Source: Escherichia phage 348Ecol098PP
Sequence record: OR062947.1
Direction: 5' to 3' (one strand)
DNA: 64,000 nt
Shown here: one piece after another, positions 8,226 through 61,399 of the stretch
How positions within the stretch are numbered: the stretch's first letter is position 1
How the letters are laid out: each line of letters opens with the position of its first letter
Notes under the pieces: generated by a model
Databases searched by the model: none
What the model was told of the DNA's origin: nothing
What the model saw: the letters and a program-made list of their open reading frames with translations, nothing else
Program-made: the position numbers and the translations under genes

Positions 8226-9535
8226 CATTTGATGATTTGACTGAAGGCCAGAAAAACGCCTTCAACGTTGTTATGAACGCTATTAAAGAAAAGAAACATC
8301 ACGTAACTATTAATGGGCCTGCTGGTACAGGTAAAACAACCCTTACTAGATTCATCGTTGAAGCCCTTATTTCTTCTGGAGAATCAGGTATTATTTTAGC
8401 AGCCCCTACACACGCCGCTAAAAAGGTTCTAAGCAAACTTGCGGGTCAAGAAGCATCGACTATTCATAGCATTCTTAAAATCAACCCAACTACATACGAA
8501 GAAAACGTATTGTTTGAACAGAAAAAGGTTCCCGACTTAGCCTTGTGCCGTGTACTGTTATTTGACGAAGCGTCAATGTGCGACCGTTCTCTGTTTAAAA
8601 TAATGTTAGCTAGTATCCCTAAATGGTGTACAGTAATTGGAATCGGCGACCGATGCCAGATTCGTCCGGTAGACCCAGGCGAATCAACTGCGTATCTAAG
8701 TCCTTTCTTCACTCACAAAGACTTCGTGCAATGCAATCTTACAGAAGTTAAACGTAGCAATGCACCAATTATTGATGTTGCGACTGATATTCGTAATGGC
8801 AAATGGATTTACGATAAAGTAGTTGATGGACACGGTGTTCACGGATATACAGACCTTAAATCGTATATGATGAACTATTTTAACGTCGTTAAAACTCCTG
8901 AAGACCTTTTCGAAAATCGAATGATGGCATTCACAAATAAGTCGGTGGACAAGTTAAATTCAATTATTCGCCGAAAACTTCTTGAAACAGAAAAACCATT
9001 TATTAAAGACGAAGTCATTGTTCTACAAGAGCCGTTTACTAAGACATATAAGCTAGATGGTAAAAATATGACCGAAATGCTTTTCAATAACGGCCAATTC
9101 GTTCGTATTCGAGATGCTGTAGAAACGTCTACATTCGTTAAAGCACGTGGTGTTTCAGGCGAATATATGATACGATACTGGAATCTTACAGTAGAAACAT
9201 ATGGGGATGATGAAGAATACATCCGCGAAGATATAAAGGTTATTTCTTCTGAAGAAGAGCTTTATAAATTCAATTTGTTTTTGGCTAAGACCGCAGAAAC
9301 ATACAAATTTTGGAATAAAGGTGGTAAAGCTCCATGGAGCGAATTCTGGGATGCTAAACGTATGTTCACTAAGGTGAAGGCGCTACCAGTATCAACCTTC
9401 CATAAGGCCCAGGGTATGTCTGTTGACACTGCCTTTGTTTATACACCGTGTATCCATTATGCCGATTCAGAATTAGCTAAACAGTTATTGTATGTCGGCA
9501 CAACTCGCGGTCGGTTTGACGTCCATTTTATTTGA
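8222..9535 (+). CDS. dda: Dda DNA helicase (SF1B)
   Basis: 437 aa; MTFDDLTEGQKNAFN...INGPAGTGKTT (Walker A) matches remembered T4 Dda. Confidence 0.92.
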   Translation: MTFDDLTEGQKNAFNVVMNAIKEKKHHVTINGPAGTGKTTLTRFIVEALISSGESGIILAAPTHAAKKVLSKLAGQEASTIHSILKINPTTYEENVLFEQKKVPDLALCRVLLFDEASMCDRSLFKIMLASIPKWCTVIGIGDRCQIRPVDPGESTAYLSPFFTHKDFVQCNLTEVKRSNAPIIDVATDIRNGKWIYDKVVDGHGVHGYTDLKSYMMNYFNVVKTPEDLFENRMMAFTNKSVDKLNSIIRRKLLETEKPFIKDEVIVLQEPFTKTYKLDGKNMTEMLFNNGQFVRIRDAVETSTFVKARGVSGEYMIRYWNLTVETYGDDEEYIREDIKVISSEEELYKFNLFLAKTAETYKFWNKGGKAPWSEFWDAKRMFTKVKALPVSTFHKAQGMSVDTAFVYTPCIHYADSELAKQLLYVGTTRGRFDVHFI

Positions 9536-10227: not shown

Positions 10228-10258
10228 GTTTACAACCAAGGATGGTTGGAGTATAATC
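10228..10258 (+). promoter_or_regulatory. early promoter cassette (family A)
   Basis: gtttacaaccaaggatggttggagtataat; near-identical copies at 10786 and 59673. Confidence 0.55.
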
Positions 10259-10288
10259 TTTCTATCTTAACCAAACAGGAAAAACATT

Positions 10289-10783
10289 ATGAATATCAAT
10301 ACTATGGCTACTTACATCCTGAAAGACGAAAAACAAATCAACTGGTACGGTGCTTCAGTGCGAGCTTATGAAAAGTTTTGTGAAATTTTAGGTGCCACTC
10401 AAGGTAATAGTTTCACTATTGTTAACTTCATCAAACAAGTTGAAGGCCCTTGGTTATTCTTAGAAATTAAAAATTCATACGGTACAATTTCTACTACTGC
10501 CATTCCAAGCACCGACTTTGAACTGTTGATTGAAGAAGCACCTGTTAAAGATGGTCTCCACTTTGATATGGATATCGTTTGTATGTACGGTACTCTGATT
10601 AAGCCTATTGAGCCTACTGATTTGTTGTGTAAATATGTTTCAATTCGACGCCCATTCGATGGTCCGGTAAATGGATGGGTAACTGACCAGTGGATTGAAG
10701 ATGGGGTTGAACTTCTGAACGTTGTTCATGCCGGTGATTTTAGTGTGGTTCCACGTAGTGCAGTAGTTAATATTCTAAATTAA
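10289..10783 (+). CDS. hypothetical protein, paralog 1 (shares C-terminal domain with next two ORFs; motB region)
   Basis: 164 aa; C-terminus GWVTDQWIEDGVELLNVVHAGDFSVVP. Confidence 0.55.
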   Translation: MNINTMATYILKDEKQINWYGASVRAYEKFCEILGATQGNSFTIVNFIKQVEGPWLFLEIKNSYGTISTTAIPSTDFELLIEEAPVKDGLHFDMDIVCMYGTLIKPIEPTDLLCKYVSIRRPFDGPVNGWVTDQWIEDGVELLNVVHAGDFSVVPRSAVVNILN

Positions 10784-10784
10784 T

Positions 10785-10816
10785 GTTGTACATCCAAGGA
10801 TGGATGGAGTATAATG
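10785..10816 (+). promoter_or_regulatory. early promoter cassette (family A)
   Basis: gttgtacatccaaggatggatggagtataat. Confidence 0.5.
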
Positions 10817-10845: not shown

Positions 10846-11376
10846 ATGATTACTATTGGTGAAATCCTTCGTGTATCTCCTGCTTCTCGTTCTAAAGCTG
10901 CAGGTCGTCTGGTTGAAGTAGCAGGGCTTCGTACTAACGGCATGGGACGTGTTAAAGAAGTTAAAGTTCGAATCATCCCCAGTTTTGGCGGACAAGATGC
11001 CCAGTATGCTTACGTAAGTCCTAAATTCCTGGAAAAACATATACGAGTCCAATTTGCTTCAAGCGAAGAAGTTGCACCTGCACACTTTGCTTCTGTTGAA
11101 GAAGTTGAATCACGTGATGGATACGTATGTGAATCCACTGAGCCTAATGTACAGTTCAAATGGGCCCTTTGCAAAGGCGTTGAATTTATAACCGATAAAG
11201 AATTTGATTACATCGACGAATACGGTTATCCAAGCAAAACTGATACTATGTGCGGCTTCATCAGCGACCAATGGGTTGAAGATGGTAAAAAGCTATACAA
11301 TATTGTATTCTTAGGTGACTTCCGAGTTGTTGAAGAATCTGAAATCACTCGCTATGTGTCTCCACGTAAAGCTTAA
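10846..11376 (+). CDS. hypothetical protein, paralog 2
   Basis: ATG at 10846 downstream of the promoter (the track start 10783 lies inside the promoter); C-terminus GFISDQWVEDGKKLYNIVFLGDFRVV. Confidence 0.55.
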   Translation: MITIGEILRVSPASRSKAAGRLVEVAGLRTNGMGRVKEVKVRIIPSFGGQDAQYAYVSPKFLEKHIRVQFASSEEVAPAHFASVEEVESRDGYVCESTEPNVQFKWALCKGVEFITDKEFDYIDEYGYPSKTDTMCGFISDQWVEDGKKLYNIVFLGDFRVVEESEITRYVSPRKA

Positions 11377-11385
11377 GGAATTATT

Positions 11386-11805
11386 ATGAATATTGCAAAT
11401 CTCTCTATTGGTGATTATGTACACGTATCGGATGCTTCTCGCTCTAAAGTTGCTGGTAAGTTGGTCGAAGTTCTTTCTGTGAGTGATCCGGTTTTTGGAC
11501 GTAACGAAGTTAAAGTTAGTGACGCCGATGGTAACATTGGTTACGTTAAAAGCCAGTTCATCGAGCCAGAAGAACGCGCGTTCAAATGGAAACTGGGCAG
11601 ATCAGTTTTAGTTGTAAAAGACTACGAGTTCACCATTGCCGCTGCGACAGATGGAACACCGTGGACAACGAATCAAGTTGCTGGTTTTATTTCGGACCAA
11701 TGGGTAGAAGATGGTGTTAAGCTTTATAACATCGTTTTCGCTGGACAGTTCATGGTAGTTCCTGAGTTCCAAATCAAAAAATATTGTCCAGCATCTTTTG
11801 CATAA
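11386..11805 (+). CDS. hypothetical protein, paralog 3
   Basis: 139 aa; N-terminus resembles paralog 2 (SxASRSKxAGxLVEV); C-terminus GFISDQWVEDGVKLYNIVFAGQFMVVP. Confidence 0.55.
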   Translation: MNIANLSIGDYVHVSDASRSKVAGKLVEVLSVSDPVFGRNEVKVSDADGNIGYVKSQFIEPEERAFKWKLGRSVLVVKDYEFTIAAATDGTPWTTNQVAGFISDQWVEDGVKLYNIVFAGQFMVVPEFQIKKYCPASFA

Positions 11806-11809
11806 AGTT

Positions 11810-11860
11810 GTTTACTTCTCCTCTGGATTTGGTATTATATCCATATCAACCAGAGGAGAA
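11810..11860 (+). promoter_or_regulatory. early promoter with 10-bp inverted repeat spanning -10 to SD
   Basis: gtttac at 11810; tctcctctgg (11817-11826) is the reverse complement of ccagaggaga (11850-11859); tattat -10 between them. Confidence 0.5.
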
Positions 11861-11864
11861 TAAT

Positions 11865-12389
11865 ATGTTAGTTTACCGCGTAGAACGTAGTTTTTGTACT
11901 CAACGTGAATCATTACCAGGAATTGCTATCAAAGACGGTAAAGCCGTCAGAATTTGGGAAACCTCTTGGAATAAAGAACCTCGTTCGCCATACGGTTGGT
12001 CGGGCACCGACAACTCTGAAGAAACATGGGAGTTCCTTGATAAGCATGGAATACTCTCAGGTAACTTCTACCATCATGGCGACAACTATAATGTCCCTAA
12101 TCGTCCTACAGTAAATGAAGACAAACTCCTTGAACAAAATATCTTAAGATACTATAGAATTGATCACTCATTTGAATTGAGTGAAGATTGGGCCCAAGGG
12201 TTCTATTTTGGATTTGAAAGTGTTGACGCGGTTTATGCATGGTTTGATGACCAGGTGGATGTTGAACTCTTGAAAGCTAAAGGATACTACATCGCGGTCT
12301 ATGAAGCGCCTGATTTCATCCTCGGAAGTTGTCAATTAATGTTCAGACGTTCATTGGCAGAACAAGTTGATTTTATTTTGCTAAAATGA
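11865..12389 (+). CDS. hypothetical protein
   Basis: ATG at 11865 after cagaggag SD; 174 aa. Confidence 0.5.
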   Translation: MLVYRVERSFCTQRESLPGIAIKDGKAVRIWETSWNKEPRSPYGWSGTDNSEETWEFLDKHGILSGNFYHHGDNYNVPNRPTVNEDKLLEQNILRYYRIDHSFELSEDWAQGFYFGFESVDAVYAWFDDQVDVELLKAKGYYIAVYEAPDFILGSCQLMFRRSLAEQVDFILLK

Positions 12390-21799: not shown

Positions 21800-21801
21800 A
21801 A

Positions 21802-21837
21802 TTGTACAAACTCTTGAGAGCAGAGTATAATGCTCTC
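21802..21837 (+). promoter_or_regulatory. early promoter cassette (family D, gagagca-tataat-tgctctc)
   Basis: ttgtacaaactcttgagagcagagtataatgctctc; near-identical copy at 52535. Confidence 0.55.
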
Positions 21838-21875
21838 ATGGATTACAAAAACATTAATCAATTGAGGAAATTAGC

Positions 21876-49992: not shown

Positions 49993-51126
<1,134 letters not shown>

Positions 51127-51188
51127 TGGTTTACAAACACCAAGGAAGGTGTTACTATGGCTTTTATCAACAACACGAGGAGAAAATT

Positions 51189-51689: not shown

Positions 51690-52033
51690 ATCCTATTTAC
51701 GCTATAGTAGCAGCTTTTGCTCTAGTTTCTACGGTAACAATAGTTGTCTTAAACAACAAAGTTGATTCGTTGAATACTGAATTAGCTTCTGTCAAAGAGA
51801 CCGCTAAAAACAATGCTAAAGTATTAGACGACTTCAAGGTTCAATATCAGTCAATCGAAGAAATGACTTATAAGAACCGTGTTTTAGTTGACCAACTTAA
51901 GGCCGAAAATGAAAAGCTCCGTAAGGATTCGAAGAAGAAGAACGTGGTGGCAAGTAAACCAGGATTGGTCGAAAAACAAATCAACAGGTCCTTCGATTCC
52001 TTTGCAGAAGACCTCAGGAAGCTCTCAGAATGA
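51677..52033 (+). CDS. i-spanin (inner-membrane spanin, PseT.3-like)
   Basis: 118 aa; N-terminal TM helix then a charged coiled-coil-like periplasmic domain; immediately followed by the lipoprotein ORF. Confidence 0.6.
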   Translation: MLKVNPIYAIVAAFALVSTVTIVVLNNKVDSLNTELASVKETAKNNAKVLDDFKVQYQSIEEMTYKNRVLVDQLKAENEKLRKDSKKKNVVASKPGLVEKQINRSFDSFAEDLRKLSE

Positions 52034-52320: not shown

Positions 52321-52535
52321 CTAAAGAACAGCATGAATACATTAAAGGGCTTATCTATGAATCTGAAATGGCGGCTATGATTTATGGACGCCAGATTCAA
52401 CGATTAGAATCTTTGCCTCCGACTAATGACCGCTTGTTAGTTCAGTCTCGTGCTAATCTGAAAAATGAATATCAGAATAAGTGGGCAGTAGCGACTAAAG
52501 CTCTTCATGAGTATATTGAATCTTTAGTAAAATAG
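52311..52535 (+). CDS. hypothetical protein
   Basis: 74 aa ORF. Confidence 0.45.
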   Translation: MSMTKEQHEYIKGLIYESEMAAMIYGRQIQRLESLPPTNDRLLVQSRANLKNEYQNKWAVATKALHEYIESLVK

Positions 52536-52569
52536 TTTACAAACTCTCGGGAGCAGAGTATAATGCTCC
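52535..52569 (+). promoter_or_regulatory. early promoter cassette (family D)
   Basis: gtttacaaactctcgggagcagagtataatgctcc; palindrome ggagca/tgctcc around tataat. Confidence 0.55.
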
Positions 52570-52592
52570 TATGGATAATTGAGGAAATCTAA

Positions 52593-58587: not shown

Positions 58588-58627
58588 GTTTACTTTGGTA
58601 CAGGTTATGTTATTATAGACCTGTACC
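58588..58627 (+). promoter_or_regulatory. early promoter with 8-bp inverted repeat flanking -10
   Basis: gtttac at 58588; ggtacagg ... cctgtacc flanking tattat. Confidence 0.5.
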
Positions 58628-58657
58628 AACAAACAACTTAAACATCTGGAGAATAAA

Positions 58658-59023
58658 ATGAACTACATCAACTTCGAACGTAAATATGTTTCTAACGGTA
58701 TCGCTGGTTCTTCTGAAGTTATTTGCTTATGGAAACACGAAAACGGTACAGTTTGTGAAATCGAACAGTGCATGACTCCTAATTACGTTTATATGCGATT
58801 TGAAAACGGCATCACGGTTTCAATCACGATGGAAGGTTCAAATTTTAAAATTGCATTAGATGATGATTTCCGTCAGCGTGATTTAGGTACTCATCCTTGC
58901 TGGAACGGTGTTAATCGTAAACTTCTGGTTAAAACTTGGATTCGTCATATCCTGAGTAACCGAGCTAAACCTGAACATCTCGAAGCAATCTTTGATGTAG
59001 TTCTTAATGAATTCGATATCTAA
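58658..59023 (+). CDS. hypothetical protein
   Basis: 121 aa; ctggagaa SD. Confidence 0.5.
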   Translation: MNYINFERKYVSNGIAGSSEVICLWKHENGTVCEIEQCMTPNYVYMRFENGITVSITMEGSNFKIALDDDFRQRDLGTHPCWNGVNRKLLVKTWIRHILSNRAKPEHLEAIFDVVLNEFDI

Positions 59024-59030
59024 TTTAACT

Positions 59031-59046
59031 GGGAGCCGAAGCTCCC
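59031..59046 (+). other. RNA hairpin (CGAA loop) in the intercistronic region
   Basis: gggagccgaagctccc; no T-run follows. Confidence 0.35.
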
Positions 59047-59058
59047 ACTGAGGAAATT

Positions 59059-59673
59059 ATGTTTAAAGTTAATACTTTTTATAAAATGAATTTTAAAAAT
59101 GGGGATATTACTCCACGCCTTAAAAACATGTTCTCATATGACCTTATCGAGCCTTTTGAAGTTTTAGAAGTTACTGATGCCGGCTCGGTTTGTGAAATTA
59201 GAACTTCTGAAGGTAAAATTTATCAGGCAGGTGTTGGTAAATTCAGTAATTGTTTTTCTTTAATATTCTCGACCGATTTAGATGAGCATTTTATTGAATG
59301 TCCTAACCCTAAGGTCTATGAAGTTCCACAACAAGAAACTAAGAAAAATGGTCCGCACGAATATACGAAGGTTGAAACTCCTCATGGCGTGATGTGGCGT
59401 CATAACTCTCCTTTTGGAAGTAAAGGAACATTTGCTCAACCGTCTAAACCGTATGACGATGAAAAATACGTCGTCGTCTTTTTATCTGAACAGGGCACTC
59501 AAGACCGTGGATGCCAACGAAGTGGTTTACTAAGTGAACTTGAAGCTCATAACCAAGCACGTGAATTCGTTGAGAAAAATCCTGGTTCTGAAGCTCTAGT
59601 CATGAAAGCAATTACTCAATATATCACTGCTCAACCTGTTGTTCATCCGGTAGAAATTAATTTCGTTAAGTAG
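59059..59673 (+). CDS. hypothetical protein
   Basis: 204 aa ORF. Confidence 0.5.
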   Translation: MFKVNTFYKMNFKNGDITPRLKNMFSYDLIEPFEVLEVTDAGSVCEIRTSEGKIYQAGVGKFSNCFSLIFSTDLDEHFIECPNPKVYEVPQQETKKNGPHEYTKVETPHGVMWRHNSPFGSKGTFAQPSKPYDDEKYVVVFLSEQGTQDRGCQRSGLLSELEAHNQAREFVEKNPGSEALVMKAITQYITAQPVVHPVEINFVK

Positions 59674-59703
59674 TTTACATCCAAGGACGGATTAGAGTAT
59701 AAT
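59673..59703 (+). promoter_or_regulatory. early promoter cassette (family A)
   Basis: gtttacatccaaggacggattagagtataat. Confidence 0.55.
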
Positions 59704-59727
59704 GATTTCTTTAGTAAGTGGAAAAAT

Positions 59728-59925
59728 ATGAAATTTTTAATAGCACAAACGGTCCAATTAAAAGGTGTTGGAATCCCTGGGATGATTTTTAAAGTTCTCC
59801 ATGAATTTAAAACCGCCGCTGTAATTATCAATGAAGCGTATGCTGTTCAATGGGTTGATGGGACTTCTGACATACGTATGGGTAAAGAGTTATCTCCTAT
59901 TAAAGGGTTGAAACATGTTGAATAA
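59728..59925 (+). CDS. hypothetical protein
   Basis: 65 aa ORF. Confidence 0.4.
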   Translation: MKFLIAQTVQLKGVGIPGMIFKVLHEFKTAAVIINEAYAVQWVDGTSDIRMGKELSPIKGLKHVE

Positions 59926-60127
59926 ATTAATCCAGAAATTGTTAGGCACGGAAATGGTCGAAGTTACTTATCGTGTGACTGACTGCTCGCCTATTCATCC
60001 ACAGGATGAACCGTATATCAAGACAATTAAAATGCTTAAAAATGACGGTGGTTTATCCATTGAAGACCGTCTGCCTAGTTACGGTCATTGGGCAGATGTT
60101 GAAATTATAAGTGTTAAAGATGCCTGA
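59915..60127 (+). CDS. hypothetical protein
   Basis: 70 aa ORF. Confidence 0.4.
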   Translation: MLNKLIQKLLGTEMVEVTYRVTDCSPIHPQDEPYIKTIKMLKNDGGLSIEDRLPSYGHWADVEIISVKDA

Positions 60128-60578
60128 ATTAGAAATAAGAAGTAATTTCAAGTGGCCGTCATGCGCATTAAGTAACTTTGCTCAATGGCCTTTTGTTATG
60201 GATGGTATTCAATTCGGAGGTCTTGAAGGATTTCTCCAAGGATGTAAGGTGAAAAATGTTGAACAACAAAGACGTATATTTGGGTTGTCTGGATTGGCTG
60301 CACAGCAAGCTGGAAGGTCTTATGCAAGAGCTCAGGACCGTGGGACCCTCTTCTGGTTAGGAGTTCCATTTTCAAGATACTCTGAAGCGTGGAAAGAATT
60401 ATACACAAATGCATATTTTGAAGCCGCGATCCAAAACAAGGGGTTTCGTGATGCCTTACAAGCCTCTAAAGGAAAAATTTTGAAGCACAGCATGGCCAGC
60501 CACCTAACAAAAGATGATACAATACTAACCGAAGCTGAATTTATTGATGTGTTAAACCTATTAAGAGACTCTTTATGA
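60120..60578 (+). CDS. NADAR (YbiA-like) domain protein
   Basis: ATG at 60120 (track start 60111 is GTG); LSNFAQWPFVMDGIQFGGLEGFLQGCK resembles the FSNFAAWP...HYFQAQK core of E. coli YbiA. Confidence 0.5.
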   Translation: MPELEIRSNFKWPSCALSNFAQWPFVMDGIQFGGLEGFLQGCKVKNVEQQRRIFGLSGLAAQQAGRSYARAQDRGTLFWLGVPFSRYSEAWKELYTNAYFEAAIQNKGFRDALQASKGKILKHSMASHLTKDDTILTEAEFIDVLNLLRDSL

Positions 60579-61399
60579 AGCCTACTATTTTGACTGATAT
60601 TGATGGTGTATGTTTAAGCTGGCAATCTGGACTTCCTTATTTTGCCCAAAAATATAATCTTCCATTAGAACATATTTTAAAAATGATTCAGGACGAAAAA
60701 TTTATTTCTCCTGGTAAACTATTCAATACCGACGATAACCTTGGTAAACAATTAATAGAAAAATATAATCGCTCTGATTTTATTCGTTACTTAGCGCCTT
60801 ATTCGGATGCTCTTCGAGTTATCAATAAACTAAAAGAAGACTATAATTTTGTAGCCGTGACGGCGCTAGGTGATTCAATTGATGCTCGATTGAATAGACA
60901 ATTTAACTTGAATGCTTTGTTCCCAGGCGCTTTCTCTGAAGTAATGATGTGTGGTCATGATTCTTCAAAGGAACAATTATTTGAACTAGCTAAAACAAAA
61001 TATAACGTGATTTGTTACGTTGACGATTTAGCTCATCATTGTGACCATGCGGCAGAAATTCTTAATGTACCGATTTATTGGTTGGCTCGTGGTGAACGTG
61101 ATGCCATTCCTCGTACTGCACAACGTGTACACACGTGGGATGATATTGAATCTCGTTTGGTTCCACCTGAGCATAATTCAGATTCAGATCGTGAAGACCT
61201 TTTAAAACGATTGGCGGATTTGCTTAAAGAATCTGGTGCAACAAGTCCAGGCGCATGGCCTAATCAAATTGGTGGCCCCTCGACAACACGTACTCCATAT
61301 ACCTGGCGAACCCCAGGACCAACCGATATGCAGCCATGGTGGACGATTCAAAACTTTCCTTTAGATTCGTCCAAATGGACTTGGTCTACAAATTGTTAA
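60575..61399 (+). CDS. HAD-superfamily hydrolase-like protein
   Basis: 274 aa; N-terminal ILTDIDGV (DxDG, HAD motif I) and a later CYVDD motif. Confidence 0.45.
   Translation: MKPTILTDIDGVCLSWQSGLPYFAQKYNLPLEHILKMIQDEKFISPGKLFNTDDNLGKQLIEKYNRSDFIRYLAPYSDALRVINKLKEDYNFVAVTALGDSIDARLNRQFNLNALFPGAFSEVMMCGHDSSKEQLFELAKTKYNVICYVDDLAHHCDHAAEILNVPIYWLARGERDAIPRTAQRVHTWDDIESRLVPPEHNSDSDREDLLKRLADLLKESGATSPGAWPNQIGGPSTTRTPYTWRTPGPTDMQPWWTIQNFPLDSSKWTWSTNC

Follow-up and report, generated by a model that had tools for sequence, protein, structure and literature searches.

Three short promoter-like sequences recur almost unchanged at distant loci of the 64,000-nucleotide stretch of phage DNA analyzed here (the window), and they raise the question of whether such sites arose independently or are copies of one sequence through which early genes are exchanged. 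Around these sites the window is 96 to 98% identical to the RB69-like coliphages ST0, HX01, NBG1, F2, and a20, and we assign it to a Mosigvirus (an RB69-like, T4-type phage). Early transcription runs along the + strand of the window. The first two sites, copies 1 and 2, lie in the gene order dda, dexA, motB.1-like, motB, second motB-like, motB.2-like, and the third, copy 3, belongs to the gene 30.x region, which separates genes 31/rIII from gene 30. We refer to the repeated sequence as family A.

Copy 1 (GTTTACAACCAAGGATGGTTGGAGTATAAT; 10228..10257, + strand) starts 6 nt past the dexA stop codon and comprises a −35 element, GTTTACA (10228-10234), a 17-nt spacer, ACCAAGGATGGTTGGAG, and a −10 element, TATAAT (10252-10257), with a predicted transcription start at about A10264. 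The 5'UTR and ribosome-binding site that follow (10258..10288, +) resemble the 5'UTR after the nrdC.3 family A copy of relatives (tctatcttaac...) and lead into the motB.1-like gene (10289..10783, +; 164 amino acids [aa]). Copy 2 (TTGTACATCCAAGGATGGATGGAGTATAAT; 10786..10815, +), directly after the motB.1 stop codon, has the −35 variant TTGTACA, a 17-nt spacer, TCCAAGGATGGATGGAG, and TATAAT at 10810-10815; its predicted start is at about A10822, and it is the predicted promoter of motB (10846..11376, +; 176 aa). Copy 3 (GTTTACATCCAAGGACGGATTAGAGTATAAT; 59673..59703, +) shares its first base with the last base of the upstream stop codon, that of a 204-aa ORF (59059..59673, +; phrog_17531). It has a −35 element GTTTACA, an 18-nt spacer, TCCAAGGACGGATTAGAG, TATAAT at 59698-59703, and a predicted start at about 59710, and it is the predicted promoter of a 65-aa gp30.5-like ORF (59728..59925, +; phrog_1690). 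Thus, all three of the near-identical promoter sequences described in an earlier note on this DNA are present at distant loci, each 30 to 31 nt long and each just 5' of an early-strand gene. The degenerate pattern given there matched copy 1 exactly; copy 2 matched with two mismatches and in a register one base off the position 10785 given for it, and copy 3 was missed by an ungapped search because its spacer is one base longer.

An exact 12-mer core, CCAAGGAYGGWT, occurs in the window only at the three copies, and 100 dinucleotide shuffles gave no expectation of pattern matches by chance. When the copies were aligned with 100-nt flanks, as the earlier note had proposed, similarity was limited to the block from −35 to −10 and to a patchy likeness of the 5'UTRs and ribosome-binding sites; neither the upstream flanks nor the coding sequences are related. 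Judged by eye only, the gene 5' of each copy ends in A/T-rich sequence (aaaacagcgataaaacca, aatattctaaattaat, and gaaattaatttcgttaagta). Two candidate elements within the spacer were rejected: a palindromic operator, CCAAnnATnnTTGG, is intact in copy 1 but disrupted in the other two copies, and a mini-ORF or strong ribosome-binding site, AAGGATGG, is not conserved, copy 3 having ACG.

Next, the status of the copies as early promoters was considered. Like T4-type early promoters in general, they have a GTTTAC-type −35 element (GTTTACA in copies 1 and 3, with the weaker TTGTACA in copy 2), spacers of 17, 17, and 18 nt, which fit the 17 ± 1 rule, a −10 element of the TAnnAT type (a perfect TATAAT in all three), and a placement 5' of early genes. 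A same-strand ATG lies about 25 to 35 nt downstream of each copy, at 25 to 32 nt past the −10 element, preceded by a purine-rich ribosome-binding stretch (AGGA for the gene after copy 1). T4-type early promoters typically carry a TGn extended −10 element, whereas in all three family A copies TGn is absent and GAG precedes TATAAT. Most of the other early promoters of the window have GTTTAC(A/T), a 16- to 17-nt spacer, TGt or TGa, and TA(C/T)TAT.

For RB69, 58 early promoter sites were predicted by a hidden Markov model (HMM), among them Pe:8947, Pe:8387, Pe:51019, and Pe:52042 (Nolan et al. 2006, PMC1524935). The RB69 family A sites at 8904-8933 (the equivalent of copy 1), 50976-51005, and 51999-52028 fall inside Pe:8947, Pe:51019, and Pe:52042, respectively, and the RB69 motB site, the equivalent of copy 2, falls inside Pe:8387, whose HMM score, 6.2, is low. 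Support for these as early promoters comes from T4-type anatomy, location on the early strand, and the RB69 equivalents of copies 1 and 2; copy 3 has no RB69 equivalent. No transcription-start map or 5'-end data for the RB69 group were found in the literature searched, and we infer promoter activity for family A from its sequence. A search of the whole window against Rfam at gathering thresholds returned nothing.

Whether the three sites are more alike than promoters of their class need be was addressed with the spacers. For the 18 + strand early promoters of T4 type in the window, pairs of spacers scored a mean of 6.55 (standard deviation, 2.22), while the family A trio scored 15, 14, and 13 of 17 positions; under a conservative null that preserved column frequencies, such a triple arose in 9 of 2,000 simulated sets. 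The complete a20 genome gave the same picture: spacer pairs from its 38 early promoters scored 6.94 ± 2.22, and family A pairs scored 13 to 17. In a20 there are five family A copies, the three of the window (that at motB having TATAGT as its −10 element) and two more, 1,020 bp apart, 5' of nrdC.5 and nrdC.3. The assertion that the copies are too similar to be independent was thus borne out, and spacer matches so far above those of other early promoters indicate that the three sites are copies of one sequence. Chance resemblance has a probability close to nil: the three sites do share the hexamers that any strong promoter needs, but no match is expected in shuffled sequence and the spacer scores are outliers, which refutes it.

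Only one other pair of promoters in the window, at 21826 and 52559, has spacers that score as high. These belong to a second repeat, family B, found at 21801-21838 and 52533-52571 with the sequence (G/T)T(T/G)TACAAACTCTYGRGAGCAGAGTATAATGCTCYY and present in four copies in a20. In family B an inverted repeat brackets the −10 box, and its arms covary between copies and genera; arms of this type include GAGAGC/GCTCTC, GAGAGA/TCTCTC, GGGACC/GGTCCC (the T4 motB promoter), GAGAGCC/GGCTCTC (Dhakavirus), and variants containing G·T pairs. This inverted repeat may form a hairpin in read-through RNA or serve as an operator in DNA.

The genes 3' of the family A copies (motB.1, motB, 30.5, nrdC.5, and nrdC.3) are unrelated save for a distant paralogy of motB.1 and motB, and nrdC.5 and nrdC.3 showed no similarity at an E value of ≤1e−3. 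Unrelated downstream genes imply that the promoter spread without its genes. Copies 1 and 2 could nevertheless be alike only because a promoter and its gene were duplicated in tandem to give the motB.1/motB paralogs, with no process specific to promoters. The genes after both copies match Pfam motB and have a common C-terminal domain (located at the C terminus in the motB.1-like protein, which is also assigned to phrog_2333 and is 38% identical to T4 MotB.1), and a third paralog at 11386-11805 follows motB, so that the MotB family is matched by three tandem genes (10289-10783, 10846-11376, and 11386-11805). A single-protein query for MotB homologues reached three loci only, and an alignment query was then used. 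The proteins, however, are only 32% identical, compared with ∼90% for the promoters; the genes that follow copy 3 and the nrdC copies are unrelated; and in T4, Dhakavirus, and the genome designated teqhad, motB.1 lacks a promoter of its own and motB has a promoter of a different type. The family A copies therefore came after the gene duplication, and joint duplication of gene and promoter, which we regard as very improbable, was rejected as the cause of copies 1 and 2.

Other features of this gene cluster were observed along the way. A 1-nt frameshift truncates T4 motB.1 in comparison with the 164-aa form of the window, and RB69 motB.1 is annotated as two ORFs. A motB.2-like module at 11810-12389 consists of a promoter (GTTTACT-16-TATTAT) and an ORF (11865-12389) whose product is 34% identical to T4 MotB.2. 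In T4 and Dhakavirus, dexA and motB.1 are separated by the motB.2 module and its promoter, and in Mosigvirus this module comes after the motB paralogs; by comparison of these gene orders, this promoter-plus-gene module has changed place.

Comparison of junctions across relatives revealed exact promoter-to-promoter differences at two loci. The motB.1-like gene is bracketed by copies 1 and 2, which form a pair of direct repeats at a distance of 558 bp, and a search with this region found Mosigviruses in which the match is shorter by ∼558 bp. In phi25-307 and RPN187, the junction consists of the dexA flank and the GTTTACA of copy 1, followed by the spacer of copy 2 and the motB 5'UTR; in PTK, copy 1 extends through its spacer and is followed by the 5'UTR of copy 2 (motB). 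All three phages lack motB.1 and retain a single hybrid promoter, and phi25-307 and RPN187 differ from PTK in the crossover point inside the repeat. The hybrid junction marking motB.1 loss was found in 19 of 155 matching Mosigvirus records (∼12%). At the second locus, which lies outside the window, F27 and AV109 lack exactly the 1,020 bp between the nrdC copies and have a junction of the nrdC.6 flank and ATGTACA followed by the nrdC.3 5'UTR; we found this nrdC.5-loss junction in 21 of 169 records. Some isolates carry one of the two deletions and others carry both, and the deletions assort independently. For motB.1, deletion is more likely than insertion because of synteny with T4 and Dhakavirus, from which we infer both the direction of events and the parental sequences. 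A deletion or an insertion alike would imply crossing-over within the promoter repeat.

The distribution of family A among genera was also determined. The 30-mer was found in 225 phage records; Mosigviruses have family A at two to four places each, and phages of the JS10/IME08/Bp7/VR5 type (Dhakavirus) have it at one place. The Dhakavirus place is 5' of a gene syntenic with nrdC.3, and its spacer, TCCAAGGAYGGATGGAG, is that of copy 2 of the window. Between a20 and a Dhakavirus contig, the nrdC.3 promoter is identical at 28 of 30 positions and is the only detectable DNA similarity at the site, whereas the surrounding proteins are only 21 to 34% identical (23% for the flanking proteins). The promoters at the dexA and motB sites of T4 are of other types. 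At motB, the promoter core differs from that of the window in Tequatrovirus (including T4), in two other T4-type contigs, in Dhakavirus, and in teqhad; in these non-Mosigvirus promoters an inverted repeat brackets the −10 element, as in GGGACCagagTATAATGGTCCC or GAGAGCCatgtTATAATGGCTCTC. On either side of the replaced core, the sequences (the 3' end of motB.1 on one side and the motB 5'UTR and ribosome-binding site on the other) are homologous to the window. Comparison of these alignments indicates that the motB promoter core has been exchanged between genera within homologous flanks. In RB69, the motB site shows a seam, TTGTACATCCAAGGACGG|ATGGAGTATAAATCTTAACAACAAAGAGAG, and from ATGGAG onward the sequence, joined to a family A spacer, is the older-type 5'UTR (in teqhad, ...ggctctcATGGAGAATAAATCTTAACAACAAAGAGAG). 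A family A promoter appears to have been patched into the RB69 motB site via short homologies at the −35 element and at ATGGAG(T/A)ATAA.

Copy 3 gave a different result. Relative to the T4-like phage Shfl2, window positions 59066-59727 (the 204-aa ORF, copy 3, and the 5'UTR) replace gene 30.6, and homology resumes exactly at the ATG of the gp30.5-like ORF, which shares 69% DNA identity with Shfl2 gene 30.5. Relative to RB69, which has neither copy 3 nor 30.5, positions 59066-59911 replace 30.6. The 204-aa ORF and copy 3 thus fill the place that gene 30.6 has in T4-like phages and in RB69. The copy 3 sequence is also present in Tequatrovirus BP32 and, with a −35 element of GTGTACA, in a20. When window positions 58588-61150 were compared, the 30.x module including copy 3 was 92% identical in BP32 (L019), and such identity in another genus indicates that the module moved between genera. 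Copy 3 was rejected as a breakpoint: a deletion in G2285 (58775-59801) removes it and has its ends inside ORFs, not at promoters; the difference from RB69 ends at gene starts; and a right-hand boundary at the edge between the promoter/5'UTR and the ATG was seen only against Shfl2. On these comparisons, copy 3 is part of a mobile module, and no crossover within copy 3 was seen. A G+C-rich hairpin, gggagccgaagctccc, lies at about 59030-59045 between gene 30.7 and the next ORF and is kept with an altered stem in Shfl2 (gaggggcttcggcccc) and RB69 (gggagcttcggcttccc).

Exact deletions that leave hybrid promoters, together with replacement of the motB promoter, support a reading of family A as a recombining promoter cassette. 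The earlier note's mobile regulatory cassette is upheld in that sense, by the hybrid junctions and the cross-genus exchange of the motB core; nothing points to autonomous mobility, and no breakpoint at copy 3 was seen among the genomes compared.

The likeness to PeSL elements, which had also been proposed, holds in part. A PeSL consists of an early promoter and an adjacent stem-loop that terminates transcription (PMC2839356, PMC4122927), and such cassettes have been described in the T4-type phages RB49/phi1, PST/T4, and nt-1/KVP40 (Arbiol et al. 2010, PMC2839356; Comeau et al. 2014, PMC4122927). Both PeSLs and family A are repeated early-promoter modules (−35, −10, ribosome-binding site, and ATG, after an AT-rich region in the PeSLs) in variable early regions; the motB, 30.x, and nrdC.x regions all vary among Mosigviruses and between genera. 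In both, neighboring copies recombine, the ORF between them is lost or gained, and a chimeric element remains, and published PeSL crossovers also lie between the −10 element and the ribosome-binding site or ATG. The PST/T4 PeSL pattern TTTACW-N17-TAYWAT fits the family A copies. The two differ in that PeSLs have a stem-loop/terminator and family A does not: folding of upstream and downstream segments and a terminator scan found no stem-loop or terminator beside any copy, and the 60 nt upstream of copies 1, 2, and 3 folded no better than shuffled sequences (−4.0, −4.7, and −3.1 kcal/mol; z = +0.97, +1.63, and +1.09). They differ further in that the homology used by family A is only the ∼27 to 30 bp of the promoter core and in that family A is one tight subfamily (15 to 17 of 17 spacer positions identical) within a looser promoter population. 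Were the sites complete PeSL cassettes, with promoter and terminator stem-loop, they would be transcriptionally insulated. That they share the PeSL order of promoter, ribosome-binding site, and ATG, the variable setting, and recombination between copies accords with such an identity, but the folding results oppose it, and with only 0 to 6 nt between the preceding stop codon and the start of each copy, a stem-loop would not fit. We consider it exceedingly unlikely that these are complete PeSLs.

Family A can also be compared with the short-homology deletions of T4, for which patches of <50 bp suffice (Arbiol et al. 2010, PMC2839356). Exact deletion between direct repeats of ∼30 bp is common to both. 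Unlike the T4 cases, the family A repeats are predicted promoters, so that the product keeps a promoter for the next gene. Recombination at repeated promoters is thus already known for T4-type phages. RB69 is not named in the text of the 2010 PeSL paper (PMC2839356), and no description of the repeat-family relationship or of the recombination products in Mosigviruses was found in the PeSL and T4 early-promoter papers examined here.

A reading in which selection, not copying, keeps the sites alike was weighed against the recombination data. The spacer would then be a functional cis-element, perhaps an extra contact for RNA polymerase or a site bound by a regulator, of phage or host origin, of a coregulated early subregulon. 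The spacer is more constant from copy to copy than the −35 heptamer (GTTTACA, TTGTACA, TTTTACA, GTGTACA, or ATGTACA), and this, together with the 28-of-30 identity of the nrdC.3 promoter across diverged genera, hints at a functional constraint beyond copying. Additional consensus regions have been recognized in T4 early promoters (Hinton 2010 review, PMC2988021). Two early-promoter architectures are present in the window, a majority with TGn and TA(C/T)TAT and, in families A and B alone, GAG with a perfect TATAAT and no TGn, which would suit a separate class. Many spacers of other early promoters share a (C)AAGGA/GGA motif; many 5'UTRs share agacctATCAAC...GAGGAG; and two a20 promoters, at 143426 and 10684, have identical 33-nt 5'UTRs. 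On the other hand, the core motif CCAAGGATGG is offset by 3 nt in other promoters, such as that at window position 51153, and no palindrome is conserved across the family A copies. The promoter concerned (51124-51158, GTTTACAaacaCCAAGGAAGGtgtTACTAT) has this family A core motif as CCAAGGATGG in a20, where it also occurs in another promoter, at 143426. Moreover, the hybrid junctions and the promoter replacement show copying and recombination directly, and selection alone would not give 15 to 17 of 17 identical positions at unrelated genes. Selection as the sole cause of the likeness is, in our judgment, unlikely.

A more specific proposal, somewhat less probable again, is that the spacer WCCAAGGAYGGWTGGAG is a cis-element (an RNA polymerase contact, possibly Alt dependent, or an operator for an early protein) that defines a separate immediate-early class of motB.1, motB, 30.5, nrdC.3, and nrdC.5. 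If true, it would explain the survival of the spacer between genera whose neighboring genes have diverged hugely. MotB is reported to bind DNA nonspecifically and its knockdown to hardly alter the T4 transcriptome (PMC7827196); given the nonspecific binding described there, MotB is unlikely to be the specific regulator. The constancy of the spacer may reflect recent exchange or an added spacer function.

We favor, with a probability of roughly 80%, the reading that family A is a lineage-specific subfamily of early promoters that has spread by copying and serves as a set of recombination points without a stem-loop. Family A would be a subfamily of T4-type early (host sigma-70) promoters with at least five members in the full genome. 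Each copy most likely fires right after infection and would drive the small gene downstream of it (motB.1-like, motB, or gp30.5-like). Near-identity that extends to the normally unconstrained 17-nt spacer would have arisen by short-patch homologous recombination or gene conversion, not by independent evolution. As direct repeats on the early strand, the copies would act as portable homology; crossing-over between neighbors would remove, or in reverse insert, a gene module and leave one functional hybrid promoter. The process would resemble PeSL modular shuffling but with the promoter alone. Counting against this reading are the weak −35 element of copy 2, the low published HMM score of its RB69 equivalent, the lack of a breakpoint at copy 3 among the genomes compared, and the constancy of the spacer relative to the −35 element.

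These results reveal no new kind of system; they offer a clean case from nature of the gain and loss of small early genes by T4-type phages. A promoter core of ∼30 bp without a terminator hairpin appears to be enough homology for exact deletion or insertion of a module, with a product that keeps a predicted working promoter, which suggests that such recombination can proceed without the stem-loop and would extend the PeSL idea to the RB69-like genus. For annotation and engineering, motB.1 and nrdC.5 emerge as naturally dispensable modules, and deletion hot spots of this kind should be predictable.
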